DNA of 20,000 bases from an uncultured virus (IMG/VR IMGVR_UViG_3300030451_003166) (taxonomy: Duplodnaviria > Heunggongvirae > Uroviricota > Caudoviricetes > Crassvirales): the IMG/VR virus record IMGVR_UViG_3300030451_003166. One strand, written 5' to 3'. Position numbers and translations under genes: made by a program. Shown piece after piece: positions 2,716 through 5,536 of the stretch. How positions within the stretch are numbered: position 1 is the stretch's first letter; every line of letters starts with the position of its first letter. Below the pieces are notes generated by a model that did no database searches, was not told where the DNA came from, and was given only the letters and a program-made list of their open reading frames with translations.

Positions 2716-3056
2716 TACTTTTTACCGCCTTTTTTCTTTCTACACTTAGCTATCATACCACTTGCGTATGCTGATGGAAATACTTTGTGAGCTGCCTTTG
2801 CTTTGTAATAACAGTCATCTTTTAATTTAGCAGGAGATGCAGCACCTTTCTTTGCGTGCGCTGCTGCGCCAGCTAAACCTAACGCACCTTTAGCTAAACC
2901 TGTTATAGAGTCCATGCCTTTTGATTTTGCTTTTTCTGATTTTTTTTGAGCGTCGACCTCGGATTGTTTTGCAGCATTTACTGCTTTGACTACGTCTGTA
3001 TCCATCTTCATTGGAGACTTACCTGGATATGCGTAACCTTTCATTTTGAATCCCAT
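2715..3056 (-). CDS. Basic protein, FKMKG-YPG family, with C-terminal FPSAYASG..AKCRK module
   Basis: 113 aa; starts MGFKMKGYAYPGKSPMK; first gene of the leftward operon. Confidence 0.85.
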   Translation of the reverse strand: MGFKMKGYAYPGKSPMKMDTDVVKAVNAAKQSEVDAQKKSEKAKSKGMDSITGLAKGALGLAGAAAHAKKGAASPAKLKDDCYYKAKAAHKVFPSAYASGMIAKCRKKKGGKK

Positions 3057-3088
3057 ACTGATTATTTTTAGATTACTATATATTCATA

Positions 3089-3115
3089 ATTATTACACGT
3101 AAAATATAGTATTTA
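3089..3115 (-). promoter_or_regulatory. Candidate promoter for the leftward operon (TAAA-N13-GTGTAATAAT)
   Basis: Lies 33 nt upstream of ATG 3056. Resembles TAAA-N14-GTGTGATTAT at 13248-13275. Confidence 0.3.
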
Positions 3116-3134
3116 CAATTGCATGTTTTAAAAG

Positions 3135-3181
3135 TGTGACAATAGCTTGTTACTAAGTATACTTATAAGGCTTATGTCACA
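3135..3181. promoter_or_regulatory. Inverted-repeat element copy A (TGTGACAATAGC...GGCTTATGTCACA)
   Basis: Arms at 3135-3147 and 3169-3181, with inner perfect palindrome TAAGTATACTTA at 3154-3165. A second copy is at 11211-11256. Confidence 0.65.
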
Positions 3182-3203
3182 AAAAAAAGTTGTTATAAAT
3201 TTT

Positions 3204-3279
3204 GGGGTGAAGTATTGCTCCCCCCTACTGCACCACCACCCCACCATGGAAAACGCATATTTTATGGCCACCCCCGGCC
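3204..3279. other. GC-rich C-tract island (candidate origin or genome end/packaging site)
   Basis: CCCCCC, CACCACCACCCCACC and GGCCACCCCCGGCC within otherwise very AT-rich intergenic DNA at the strand switch. Confidence 0.4.
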
Positions 3280-3290
3280 TCGTATTTATA

Positions 3291-3324
3291 TATATTATCA
3301 TTGTTTTGTCGTTTTTGTATTGTA
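3291..3324 (-). promoter_or_regulatory. Repeated promoter-like motif, leftward copy
   Basis: Minus strand reads TACAATACAAAAACGA-CAAAACAAT-GATAATATA (9-nt spacer). Confidence 0.65.
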
Positions 3325-3354
3325 AATTTATTTTTATTTATTACTAATTATTTT

Positions 3355-3388
3355 TACAACGTAAATACGAAGTTATGTTGATAATATA
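3355..3388 (+). promoter_or_regulatory. Repeated promoter-like motif copy 1
   Basis: TACAACGTAAATACGA-AGTTATGTT-GATAATATA. Confidence 0.75.
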
Positions 3389-3493
3389 TATGTAAAAAGA
3401 AACAAACAAAAATAAAATTAAATTGTAAACAGTGACAAAACGGCCAACAACATACAACTATAAAATAACTAATAAACAAAGTATCTACTTTTA

Positions 3494-3527
3494 TACAATG
3501 TAAATACGGCTAACAAAAGATAATATA
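3494..3527 (+). promoter_or_regulatory. Repeated promoter-like motif copy 2
   Basis: TACAATGTAAATACGG-CTAACAAAA-GATAATATA, upstream of ORF 3564. Confidence 0.75.
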
Positions 3528-3563
3528 ATAAAATAAATGTTTAACTAAATAAAAATAATAATT

Positions 3564-3800
3564 ATGAGTAAATTAAATGTAATTGAGTCTAAAAGATTCG
3601 TAGTAAGAAAATCCTTAATCGGTAAAAATCAAGTAATAGTATTCACAAATAAAAAAGGTGACGTTATTAAGTACAATCACGACAAAGTGTATGAAATTAT
3701 GAAGTCAAAACTAGAAAACATGCCATGTTGGAATAAGTACAAAAGTTACACAGCTACTAACAATATTCCGTTAGTGTGTAGAAATGTAGAAATACTATAA
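3564..3800 (+). CDS. Hypothetical early protein
   Basis: 78-aa ORF with an A-rich leader, downstream of a motif copy. Confidence 0.75.
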   Translation: MSKLNVIESKRFVVRKSLIGKNQVIVFTNKKGDVIKYNHDKVYEIMKSKLENMPCWNKYKSYTATNNIPLVCRNVEIL

Positions 3801-3809
3801 CAAAAAACT

Positions 3810-3970
3810 TAGTCATAAAAAACTGTGTGTGAAGTGCTGATTAGCACACAGTGACTAGACACCTAGTTGAGTGGCATTTAGGGTGTTCTAAAAAATGCGA
3901 ATGTACCATGTCGTTTGGTCGACAATAGTAGTCATGGTGTGCAATGTGAGTTCGATTCTCACACTACTAC
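3810..3970 (+). ncRNA. Candidate structured RNA ending in a tRNA-like acceptor/T-arm minihelix
   Basis: TAGTAGT (3926-32) pairs with ACTACTA (3963-69), giving 7 bp. GTGAG-TTCGATT-CTCAC (3946-62) forms a T-arm. Several further stems lie upstream. Confidence 0.6.
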
Positions 3971-3998
3971 TAATGTTTAACTAATAAAATATAATACT

Positions 3999-4271
3999 AT
4001 GTGGAAAAATGTAGATAAAACTAGACTTCACCGAGAAGCGTTAAAGCATGCTTGGTTTAATATGGACACTTCAAATTTACCTGAAGTAAAAACAATAACT
4101 GTCACTATGGATAAATATCCTGCTCGATTAGGTTATGGTACAGTAAAGATAGAAAGTGATGGACCAAATGGTTACTGTTCTTACACTTCAATAAGAGAAA
4201 ATCCTTTCTTATACTTAAGTGAAAACGAAAAGTTTTTATCAGGTGAATATGAACTAATAATCATAGAGTAA
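3999..4271 (+). CDS. Hypothetical early protein
   Basis: 90-aa ORF. Confidence 0.75.
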   Translation: MWKNVDKTRLHREALKHAWFNMDTSNLPEVKTITVTMDKYPARLGYGTVKIESDGPNGYCSYTSIRENPFLYLSENEKFLSGEYELIIIE

Positions 4272-4272
4272 T

Positions 4273-4365
4273 ATGTATATAGTAGAATTTATAATACACT
4301 TAACAGTAATTGGTAGTATTTGTGCTTATATGGAATACATAATAAATACGAATAAAGAAAGATAA
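4273..4365 (+). CDS. Small hydrophobic peptide (30 aa)
   Basis: Manual translation MYIVEFIIHLTVIGSICAYMEYIINTNKER; starts just after the previous stop. Confidence 0.5.
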   Translation: MYIVEFIIHLTVIGSICAYMEYIINTNKER

Positions 4366-4369
4366 TATA
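4336..4369 (+). promoter_or_regulatory. Repeated promoter-like motif copy 3
   Basis: TACATAATAAATACGA-ATAAAGAAA-GATAATATA. Confidence 0.75.
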
Positions 4370-4383
4370 ATAAACTAATAAAT

Positions 4384-4530
4384 ATGACTAAAGAATTTTA
4401 TAAATTAGCAGATTATTACGCTCACAAACTATTCAGTGAGTTCGGCTATGATACTTGTAAGTATGATGAGAGACAAATAATTTTAGAAATAGTATTAAAC
4501 AAAATAAATAAAAAAGATGAAGAAAATTAA
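4384..4530 (+). CDS. Hypothetical protein (48 aa)
   Basis: Manual translation MTKEFYKLADYYAHKLFSEFGYDTCKYDERQIILEIVLNKINKKDEEN. Confidence 0.6.
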   Translation: MTKEFYKLADYYAHKLFSEFGYDTCKYDERQIILEIVLNKINKKDEEN

Positions 4531-4831
4531 ATTATGTGTAGCAGGCTTGCTACTAAGCGGAATGAGTTATGGACAAAGTGTAAATGAGTATGGAGCAGAC
4601 TACCAACTAATGAGTTATTGTGACTCTGTAAAGGTCGAGCACTTCAATAAGTTTCAAGAAATAGAATATCGACTAATGGATTTAATAGATGCAGTGAGAA
4701 TGGATATGTACTACGGTAGAATTAGTCAAGACAATGGTGCTTACTATATCAATGAAATAGCTCAACTACAGTACGAGAACAAGCAATTAATGGCAACAAT
4801 TTTTGTAAACTTTCCAAACAATAGAAAATGA
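4517..4831 (+). CDS. Secreted or periplasmic protein with Sec signal peptide
   Basis: MKKIKLCVAGLLLSGMSYG|Q: basic N-region, hydrophobic core, Gln at +1 (Bacteroidota Q-rule). Confidence 0.75.
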   Translation: MKKIKLCVAGLLLSGMSYGQSVNEYGADYQLMSYCDSVKVEHFNKFQEIEYRLMDLIDAVRMDMYYGRISQDNGAYYINEIAQLQYENKQLMATIFVNFPNNRK

Positions 4832-5007
4832 AATATACACATACTACAATAAGTAAAGATGGTACAGAGAAAAGAGAATATACTATCGATAAAGAAAATA
4901 ATGTAACAGAAAAGATAACGTTTAACCATGATTTGATAGAGTTTGACAAGTGGTTTGCTAAGTTAGAAGAAGAATATAATGAAGAACAAGCAAACAAATA
5001 CTATTAA
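4828..5007 (+). CDS. Hypothetical protein (59 aa)
   Basis: Manual translation MKYTHTTISKDGTEKREY...EEQANKYY; ATGA overlap with the previous gene. Confidence 0.65.
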   Translation: MKYTHTTISKDGTEKREYTIDKENNVTEKITFNHDLIEFDKWFAKLEEEYNEEQANKYY

Positions 5008-5040
5008 ACAATATAAATACGAATCACTAAAGATAATATA
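5007..5040 (+). promoter_or_regulatory. Repeated promoter-like motif copy 4
   Basis: AACAATATAAATACGA-ATCACTAAA-GATAATATA; ATG at 5044. Confidence 0.75.
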
Positions 5041-5043
5041 AAC

Positions 5044-5307
5044 ATGAAAATAACATTGACAAAATATAAAGGCAACACAGTGTACTCACTATATGTAGAA
5101 AAATACGGTGAACAACATCACTTAGGCTACATAAATGCCAAAGAACTAGACGAGTTACTTCCAAAAGATGTAGAGCAGAAGTATGAAGAAATCAAAAAAC
5201 CGTGTCCTGAAGCGCAAAAACTAGCAGCTTGTATCGGTGCAATGATAAAAGCAGACAAGACTTACTTTACAGATAGTATGGGTAATCATAGAGACGGACT
5301 AGACTAA
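5044..5307 (+). CDS. Hypothetical early protein
   Basis: 87-aa ORF immediately after a motif copy. Confidence 0.75.
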   Translation: MKITLTKYKGNTVYSLYVEKYGEQHHLGYINAKELDELLPKDVEQKYEEIKKPCPEAQKLAACIGAMIKADKTYFTDSMGNHRDGLD

Positions 5308-5375
5308 TGGCAGGGTGGGTAGTGTTTGCCGCTATAGTAATGTGGCTGATTAGACAAATTAGAGAATATGAGTGA
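5307..5375 (+). CDS. Small membrane peptide (22 aa)
   Basis: MAGWVVFAAIVMWLIRQIREYE; coupled by TAATG upstream and TGATG downstream. Confidence 0.6.
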   Translation: MAGWVVFAAIVMWLIRQIREYE

Positions 5376-5536
5376 TGAAACTAAGTAATAAGCAGAAGAG
5401 TAAGATAAGACGAGAGGTAGATTTAGAGTTAGGTAATTTACCTTACAAACAGAAAATACATAAAAACAAGAAAAGATATGATAGAAAAAAGTATAAAAAT
5501 ATTGACAGGCGTAATAGTAACGGTGATAATGTCTAG
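5375..5536 (+). CDS. Small basic protein (53 aa), ArfA/BrfA-like basic motif
   Basis: MKLSNKQKSKIRREVDLELGNLPYKQKIHKNKKRYDRKKYKNIDRRNSNGDNV. Confidence 0.55.
   Translation: MKLSNKQKSKIRREVDLELGNLPYKQKIHKNKKRYDRKKYKNIDRRNSNGDNV

Follow-up and report, generated by a model that had tools for sequence, protein, structure and literature searches.

We describe a conserved RNA element that resembles the top half of a transfer RNA (tRNA), located between two genes of an uncultured virus (Caudoviricetes; Crassvirales). The DNA analyzed, hereafter called the window, is a stretch of 20,000 nucleotides (nt) from IMG/VR record IMGVR_UViG_3300030451_003166. Within it, an element of ∼45 nt at positions 3926–3970 of the plus strand joins an acceptor-like stem to a T arm through a short linker. 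It is flanked by open reading frames (ORFs) at 3564–3800 and 3999–4271, both also on the plus strand. Covariation, conservation in >100 related contigs and the lack of a complete tRNA at the site strongly support selection on this tRNA mimic. The RNA family to which it belongs is large, apparently unannotated and found in marine lytic phages of the Flavobacteriia type. We see about an even chance that it is a cutting signal resembling the t-elements of plant mitochondria, recognized by RNase P and the tRNA 3′-end pathway, which would punctuate a transcript and also free a mini-RNA.

The plus strand reads TAGTAGT (3926–3932), CATGGTGTGCAAT (3933–3945), GTGAG (3946–3950), TTCGATT (3951–3957), CTCAC (3958–3962), ACTACTA (3963–3969) and C (3970), letter for letter as given in a preliminary description of the window; as also noted there, no CCA is encoded. 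The same description called the site early intergenic, in agreement with the gene order: the minus-strand tail-fibre-like genes stop at 3301, and plus-strand replication genes come after. It further expected no full tRNA here, and ARAGORN predicted 0 tRNAs and 0 transfer-messenger RNAs (tmRNAs) in the 20-kb window, while Rfam returned nothing at the site at E ≤ 10. The Rfam tRNA model (RF00005) in particular gave no match in the window region at this threshold, nor did it match the element in relatives. Folded as a single sequence, the element adopts the expected shape at −9.9 kcal/mol. This energy is ordinary for its composition (z = −0.68), and 45 of 200 shuffles fold equally well. A search for the full architecture, defined as a perfect 7-bp stem, a perfect 5-bp stem, a TTCGANT loop and a linker of 5–21 nt, gave a single occurrence in the window and 0 in 300 dinucleotide-preserving shuffles of it.

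Relatives were collected in several ways. When IMG/VR was scanned for exact copies of the T arm followed by the 3′ strand, three contigs with the same architecture and differing linkers were returned. All three also retain a matching 5′ strand and the TGG, both of which lay outside the query. The ORF upstream of the element, here named gene78, encodes a protein of 78 amino acids (aa), and with this protein as bait we took 80 loci out of 231 relatives. Twenty-nine elements were aligned with MAFFT (alignment A3) and converted into a covariance model (R1). Across 86 sources, R1 gave 59 matches at E ≤ 1, all on the gene78 strand; 48 of these had E < 1e-4 and covered 43 of the 80 gene78-anchored loci. 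Ten more loci had weak R1 matches, representing variants with long or unusual linkers. An independent scan of IMG/VR used a pattern that fixed only GGTT and the T arm, leaving the acceptor stem unconstrained, and this one sequence variant alone was found in 111 stretches. Eighty of them were fetched; 76 had an R1 match, 74 of these at full length, and 6 loci had two copies. Complete genomes carry one or two copies each, and the extra copies present in some genomes are likewise intergenic. In all, 89 distinct full-length members were obtained. In bacterial contigs sampled at one genome per species, the GGTT/T-arm pattern occurs in 12 places, comprising 8 true tRNAs and 4 full elements. The T arm is common to eight bacterial tRNA genes, but it is short and widespread. 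The four full elements, on short contigs of metagenome-assembled genomes (MAGs) that also carry gene78, are probably binned phage DNA. Against 50,697 phage records, the 1.3-kb region gave no nucleotide match in near or distant mode, and the gene78 protein gave no tblastn match; that collection hence contains no known cultured member.

Both alignments used for comparison show compensatory change. In A3, 95.8% of cells are paired, 10 of the 12 pairs are changed on both sides (89 cells), and none of 500 shuffles reaches the observed score. When the partner was slid by one to three columns, pairing fell to 26–58%. Because the seeds of A3 were chosen by a pairing filter, a second alignment (A5) provides the cleaner test: its 62 distinct rows were collected without any acceptor-stem constraint, although the alignment is fitted to the model and kinship inflates the counts. 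Here 95.2% of cells are paired, with both-sided changes again at 10 of 12 pairs (144 cells) and 0 of 500 shuffles reaching the score. Four of the five T-stem pairs covary, and all six acceptor-stem pairs have both-sided changes. The preliminary description had proposed covariation and conservation among homologues as the check on its reading, and both are present. The first acceptor pair illustrates the variability, being AU in 14 rows of A3, UA in 11 and GC in 4. G–U pairs also occur in the stems (UG in 7 of 29 at one pair of A3); together with the absolute strand bias, they indicate that RNA, not DNA, is under selection. The element is conserved across loci whose gene78 proteins share only ∼60–85% identity. 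The alternative of a deletion remnant, also raised in the preliminary description, finds no support in relatives: ARAGORN predicted no tRNA at the element in the three contigs of the exact scan (L001–L003) or in 80 related loci, and the Rfam tRNA model is silent there. The earlier proposal of a tRNA mimic under selection is strongly supported, whereas its proposed use in transcript processing or as a decoy is a suggestion drawn from the sequence.

The alignments also revise the anatomy. The element had been assigned a 7-bp acceptor stem and a 12-bp acceptor/T helix. The outermost pair, T3926–A3969, is not conserved (only 10 of 89 members have a T just ahead of the stem), so the conserved stem has 6 bp (3927–3932 with 3963–3968). 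To judge from the family, the seventh pair is a local accident of the window, and the helix in the window's subfamily has 11 bp (6 + 5). The GG that had been read as D-loop-like and the canonical T loop are both kept in most of the family. In the corrected register the parts are as follows.

3927–3932, plus strand: acceptor-like stem, 5′ strand, in the conserved 6-bp register; the seventh pair through T3926 is confined to the window.
3933–3945, plus strand: linker, the D-loop analogue, with GG at 3936–3937; the GG is invariant in A3 and kept in 86 of 89 members.
3946–3962, plus strand: T arm, with a 5-bp stem (GTGAG/CTCAC) and a 7-nt loop, TTCGATT (84 of 89 members).
3963–3968, plus strand: acceptor-like stem, 3′ strand, with both-sided changes at all 6 pairs.
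3969–3972, plus strand: discriminator-like A with C-T-A after it; the tail consensus of the family, A-C-W-A (W, A or T), takes the form ACTA in 63 of 89 members and ACAA in 15.

In the alignment register, A3969 is the invariant discriminator-like base and C3970-T3971-A3972 the tail. A metagenome strain carries 3971 T>A, the other letter allowed at this tail position. The linker starts with the consensus N-(A/T)-T-G-G and is 9–13 nt long in most members, and the span from the first stem base to the tail A is 43–45 nt in 80 of 89. An optional seventh position by the T stem is A–U in 11 cells and mismatched, mostly A–C, in 30; it is lacking in the window's subfamily (A5). The third acceptor pair is UA in 22 rows, AU in 6 and CG in 1 of A3, and AU in 32, UA in 25 and GC in 2 of A5. 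It is never G–U.

The tail provides a link to genuine tRNA genes. A-C-W-A ends 78 of the 89 elements, and an N73-C-W-A trailer follows all eight true tRNA genes found on related phage contigs (Asp, Ala, Met and five Arg). In a Flavobacteriaceae genome reached through one MAG contig (G008), C74 followed by A or T is seen in 16 of 16 ARAGORN tRNA genes, 11 of them with CAA. Judged from these sequences, the A-C-W-A tail follows the convention by which genuine tRNA genes of the phage group and its probable host lineage form their 3′ trailers. The match between the element's tail and these trailers is the strongest indication obtained that the element may enter the tRNA 3′-end pathway. The resemblance stops short of the stems. 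Neither the acceptor nor the T-stem sequence of the tRNAs on related contigs is common with the element, and the real tRNA genes lying 0.4–1 kb downstream in 8 of 80 related loci likewise have no stem sequence in common with it. Two observations on bacterial tRNA genes are recorded here in their own right. The G008 genes (L099–L127; G008, G009) have C at 74 and never C at 75, in 16 of 16 cases. A 14.9-kb contig of a Lishizhenia bin (C127) is crowded with tRNA genes whose trailers are unrelated, and it may be foreign.

The window comes from the genome of a lytic-type phage. Its minus-strand ORFs, up to 3301, match tail-fibre-like PHROGs. The plus-strand block from 3564 starts with many small unknown ORFs, followed by ATP-dependent DNA ligase, a sigma factor, Erf and an exonuclease and, further on, by primase/helicase, thymidylate synthase, MazG and ribonucleotide reductase. 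No integrase family was detected among the 40 window ORFs. The primase/helicase is nearest to that of Cellulophaga phage phi10:1 (41.5% identity), then to those of Tenacibaculum, Riemerella and Flavobacterium phages, and a search of public runs found the stretch in 20 runs from 13 studies, mostly marine DNA metagenomes. From these relatives and this occurrence, the host is probably a marine member of Flavobacteriia. A complete 66-kb relative (G006) has direct terminal repeats, a crAss muzzle-protein domain and an ORF of 2,732 aa, and its 57 ORFs include no tRNA-processing enzyme and no integrase. The large ORF has no Pfam family and adjoins a protein with crAss muzzle domains (the pair at L240:11048–19243 and L240:7642–9045); the two hint at a virion module of a distant crAss-like kind, of which a virion RNA polymerase may be part. 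Cellulophaga phage phi14:2 was considered as a member of the RNA family and rejected. R1 finds only a T-arm-like hairpin there (E = 0.3), and ARAGORN places it within a predicted tmRNA, so it does not belong to the family. This predicted tmRNA (NC_021806, 4031–4500; tag GSSVQKLAMVA*) lies in a long non-coding region before g006. A preprint reports abundant early non-coding RNAs for phi14:2, and very highly transcribed RNAs, of unknown function, from its long intergenic regions (10.1101/2020.03.07.982082).

Starting from the observed fold, the selection on it, its strand and position, and its tRNA-gene-like trailer, we infer a course of transcription, cleavage and CCA addition that would run as follows. 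The element would be transcribed with the early genes, on their strand, in a message beginning at gene78. The transcript would fold into the coaxial acceptor/T-arm helix of a tRNA, and the GG linker would substitute for the D loop and close the elbow against the TTCGATT loop. The general tRNA-maturation enzymes of the host could then handle the element as a tRNA precursor. RNase P would cleave ahead of A3927, the first base of the stem, and the tRNA 3′-end pathway at or just past A3969, as for tRNA genes with a C-W-A trailer; the CCA-adding enzyme could then complete the end. Cleavage of this kind would punctuate the early transcript, parting the gene78 mRNA from the variable downstream genes, whose start codon lies ∼14–45 nt on, and a mini-RNA of ∼45 nt would be freed as a by-product or second product. 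A variable acceptor next to a fixed shape, elbow, A73 and trailer would suit partners that read tRNA shape rather than identity. RNase P, the 3′-end endonuclease and exonucleases, the CCA-adding enzyme and the T-loop modification enzymes all fit as readers of shape. The tRNA-like trailer and the intergenic position on the coding strand favor recognition by the end-processing machinery, if the sequence is a guide. The fast-covarying acceptor argues against a decoy for a reader of one specific tRNA, but not against a decoy for shape-readers.

Several points weigh against transcript punctuation. Of 80 relatives, 27 to 37 have no copy of the element within the 1.5 kb that follow gene78, and it is to that extent dispensable. 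A plain cutting mark has no obvious need of a near-invariant T loop and GG elbow, nor obviously of tight linkage to gene78 (68 of 80 loci), and only one or two copies are present per genome. The helix has 11 bp in the window's subfamily, and the seventh pair of the other subfamily is unpaired in 30 of 41 cells, mostly as A–C. Since tRNA has a 12-bp helix, recognition by an enzyme that measures the helix is an assumption. If the TGTTTAAC motif described below is a promoter, the downstream gene needs no processing for its expression. Finally, the sole RNA run that contains part of the stretch covers 5080–5299 only, as contigs, with no ends readable.

The surroundings of the element contain the following features.

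3564–3800, plus strand: gene78, the conserved 78-aa early gene before the element, with no Pfam or PHROG family and no fold match.
3822–3852, plus strand: hairpin 1, with an 8-bp stem (3822–3829 with 3845–3852) and a conserved, invariant-looking 15-nt loop, TGAAGTGCTGATTAG.
3858–3887, plus strand: hairpin 2, with a 6-bp stem (3858–3863 with 3882–3887) and a loop that starts TAGTT and ends TTTAG.
3890–3901, plus strand: an A-rich motif, AAAAAATGCGAA, single-stranded and placed after hairpin 2 and before the minihelix, with invariant or nearly invariant columns (alignment A7).
3974–3981, plus strand: the TGTTTAAC motif, ∼25 nt before the next start codon, which may be a promoter-like or initiation-region element.
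3999–4271, plus strand: the next early ORF, 90 aa, with no family; the gene at this place varies between relatives.

The most prominent neighbor is gene78. Its homologues in related loci are 62–85% identical, within an early region that is syntenic. Of 80 loci collected by the RNA pattern only, 69 have a gene78 homologue no more than 1.2 kb away; it is encoded upstream on the element's strand in 68 and downstream in one (L166). The protein is basic and highly conserved, and its family comprises 419 representative clusters; searches of Pfam and PHROG assigned it to no family. A predicted model (pLDDT, a per-residue confidence score, of 85.6) gave unconvincing fold matches, the best being a Foldseek hit at E = 1.5 and a VIA-align hit to small nucleases at Z = 3.1, within noise. 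Longer gene78 forms were set aside as a lead: they have a sub-threshold GreA/GreB match and a PP-loop fragment, the latter probably an artefact of gene calling.

This linkage bears on a second reading, possible though in our view doubtful, in which the freed, CCA-tailed mini-RNA is itself the functional product and acts in trans. It could serve as a decoy or sponge for readers of the acceptor end or elbow, such as CCA-modifying or CCA-clipping defence toxins, SmpB, EF-Tu or modification enzymes. Otherwise, the mini-RNA could work as a partner of the 78-aa protein, whose gene lies just upstream. Such a product would suit the conservation of the T loop, GG and A73 beyond the needs of pairing, and the tight association with a basic, highly conserved protein of unknown fold. 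It would also suit a copy number of only one or two in each complete genome, in a set location and not at every gene junction, and the weak matches of the Rfam tmRNA model to relatives as a body-less tRNA-like domain (22 and 17 bits versus 47). Yet the acceptor stem varies freely, which makes a partner that reads one specific tRNA impossible, and family searches of the window ORFs identified no defence or counter-defence gene nearby. The analogous t-element RNAs are regarded as by-products in one account (PMC11658184).

Some relatives have inserts of ∼20–85 nt in the linker, between the GG motif and the T stem. They measure ∼23–26 nt (L008, L029), 36–55 nt (L073), 43 nt (L083) and 85 nt (L059), and the variants lie at L073:2056–2145 and 2144–2226 (a tandem pair), L059:2172–2291, L083:2297–2377 and L029:1871–1925. 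None of these variants is recognized as a tRNA or tmRNA by ARAGORN or Rfam. One can imagine that acceptor stem, GG linker and T arm make up a more general platform, which we consider unlikely. Host tRNA enzymes would excise, CCA-tail and stabilize any cargo inside or beside it; the bare 45-nt form would act in trans on readers of the tRNA end or elbow, possibly with the 78-aa protein; and relatives would load modules of 20–85 nt into the linker.

A related idea that we rate as quite unlikely is that the element is a tRNA-like scaffold that carries or stabilizes RNA modules, forming with hairpins 1 and 2 a non-coding RNA of ∼150 nt (3822–3973). In relatives the linker would take up extra domains, as in engineered tRNA scaffolds or in tmRNA, and the inserts just described would be such domains. 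The spacer hairpins are themselves conserved and covary. In 19 distinct sequences of a subset that includes the window, 99.2% of cells in the two hairpins are paired and 9 of 14 pairs are changed on both sides. Hairpin 1 accounts for both-sided changes at 6 of 8 pairs, and a strain in metagenome run X9 pairs 3825 G>C with a compensatory 3849 C>G. Hairpin 2 has both-sided changes at 3 of 6 pairs, with 100% of cells paired. The A-rich motif is conserved alongside them, and no Rfam family matches the spacer hairpins at 3822–3901. Against a single composite RNA, many members have only 21–64 nt from stop codon to stem, without hairpins, so the modules are separable. Conversely, hairpin 1 follows gene78 in relatives with no minihelix nearby (L017, L031, L035), which again shows that the two can be separated. 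The structures of the linker inserts, for their part, are single-sequence folds.

The element is always intergenic, and it starts at a median of 64 nt past the upstream stop codon. The distance from the discriminator to the next ATG-initiated ORF of ≥30 aa has a median of 33 nt; it is ≤48 nt in 35 of 45 cases and 14–16 nt in 11. We think it very unlikely, though such spacing invites the idea, that the element works in cis without being cleaved, either as a protective 3′ end of the gene78 mRNA or as a structural boundary that sets where translation of the following gene begins, in hosts of a group not reliant on Shine–Dalgarno pairing. The short fixed spacing within an A/T-rich leader would agree with such a role, as would a linkage that involves the upstream gene and not the variable one downstream. 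No intrinsic-terminator-like sites were found within 3000–5500, a result in keeping with transcript punctuation as well as with an uncleaved element. Any hairpin would do for such purposes, however, with no need of a T loop, GG or tRNA-type trailer, and a tRNA-shaped helix would be expected to draw RNase P.

The TGTTTAAC motif may be a phage promoter or an initiation-region motif. All four exact plus-strand copies (3538, 3974, 14722 and 19348) lie 25–28 nt before ATGs, at 3564, 3999, 14750 and 19375, respectively. With one mismatch allowed, the count is not above chance (53 versus 47). Similar motifs follow the element, by eye, in ∼11 of 46 relatives. A scan for sigma-70 sites likewise gave no excess, with 18 sites versus 15.8 in shuffles.

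Contigs of metagenome run X5 have joints at 3962/3970 to 4336, 4361 or 4517, skipping 365–546 nt of the window. Because metagenome contigs switch downstream sequence at the element, it marks the edge of a variable gene region. Although this exact switching, and the real tRNA genes 0.4–1 kb downstream in 8 of 80 loci, might suggest a functionless leftover (a deletion remnant of a phage tRNA, an attachment-site fragment or a conserved patch of DNA recombination), such an origin is scarcely credible: compensatory changes at 10 of 12 pairs, kept across proteins only ∼60–85% identical, already contradict it as far as sequence can, the acceptor-unconstrained A5 test argues against an ascertainment artefact, both strands of the acceptor stem are present, neither the window nor G006 has an integrase, no relative has a complete tRNA at the site, and the strand bias is absolute.

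No phage family of acceptor/T-arm minihelices came to light in a full-text literature search. A 2023 catalogue of 10,006 candidate structured viral RNAs mentions tRNA-like candidates that overlap ARAGORN calls (PMC10690425). Six of its supplementary files contain no copy of the T-arm string, three larger files lying outside the search; because of those three files, the motif may still sit among the 8,495 unnamed IMG/VR candidates. As a large and easily modelled group missed by tRNA finders and Rfam, the elements are a ready candidate for a new RNA family. If transcript punctuation is the correct reading, uncultured marine Flavobacteriia phages borrow host tRNA maturation to shape their early transcripts, a principle known from organelles as tRNA punctuation and t-elements. 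The match between tail and trailers, the partnership with gene78 and the insert variants offer handles on phage RNA processing and possibly on tRNA-directed conflict between host and phage.

Comparison with known RNA classes places the element close to tRNA and apart from any one class. A canonical tRNA gene is ruled out, as neither ARAGORN nor Rfam calls one and the linker has only 9–13 nt, although the T loop and trailer are tRNA-like. A phage attachment site or tRNA 3′ fragment is also ruled out, there being no integrase, and the 5′ strand being present and covarying. Searches for Rfam families of the Y RNA (YrlA) type gave no match in the window at E ≤ 10 and none in 17 related loci at E ≤ 1.

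The tRNA-like domain of tmRNA is similar: it too combines an acceptor stem and a T arm with a D-loop analogue that lacks a stem, and its discriminator is A. The Rfam tmRNA model (RF00023) aligns relatives end to end with the body deleted, at 22, 17 and 12 bits versus a gathering threshold of 47; the window itself has no match at E ≤ 10. The element differs in having no tag reading frame or pseudoknots, and ARAGORN finds no tmRNA in the window or the related loci. The tRNA-Ala identity of tmRNA is defined by G–U as the third acceptor pair together with an A discriminator, and even the reduced jakobid mitochondrial tmRNAs that lack the mRNA-like part keep this G–U pair (PMC3590771). In the element family, by contrast, the third acceptor pair is never G–U and the acceptor sequence is unconserved.

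By analogy, the plant mitochondrial t-element is the closest documented system. These t-elements have a tRNA-like fold, sit where mRNAs end and are taken in plants as cis signals for cleavage by RNase P and RNase Z; they carry no encoded CCA, receive a CCA tail and base modifications, and are not aminoacylated (PMC1920247, PMC11658184). They are described as homologues of tRNA genes whose cloverleaves are non-canonical (Forner et al. 2007, PMC1920247; an Arabidopsis tRNA-seq study, PMC11658184). They share with the phage element a tRNA-like fold, a conserved T arm, a place between genes on the transcribed strand (polycistronic RNA) and the absence of an encoded CCA. The phage family differs in keeping only the acceptor stem, the GG linker and the T arm, in its own conserved tail and gene linkage, and in that cleavage is here only predicted. 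The motif used to screen for t-elements, GGTTCRANYCC, has no exact match; the window reads AGTTCGATTCT.

Two further systems share part of this logic. mascRNA is a eukaryotic, nuclear, cloverleaf-like tRNA-like small RNA cut from a long transcript. The logic proposed here is alike, in that RNase P and RNase Z would excise the RNA, a CCA tail would be added and the end of the flanking RNA would be defined. Synthetic minihelices of acceptor and T arm are minimal substrates of RNase P, the CCA-adding enzyme and some aminoacyl-tRNA synthetases, and the element resembles them in its coaxial acceptor/T-arm helix and single-stranded 3′ tail. Unlike them, it is natural and conserved, with an added GG linker and a helix of 11–12 bp, and its role as a substrate is putative.

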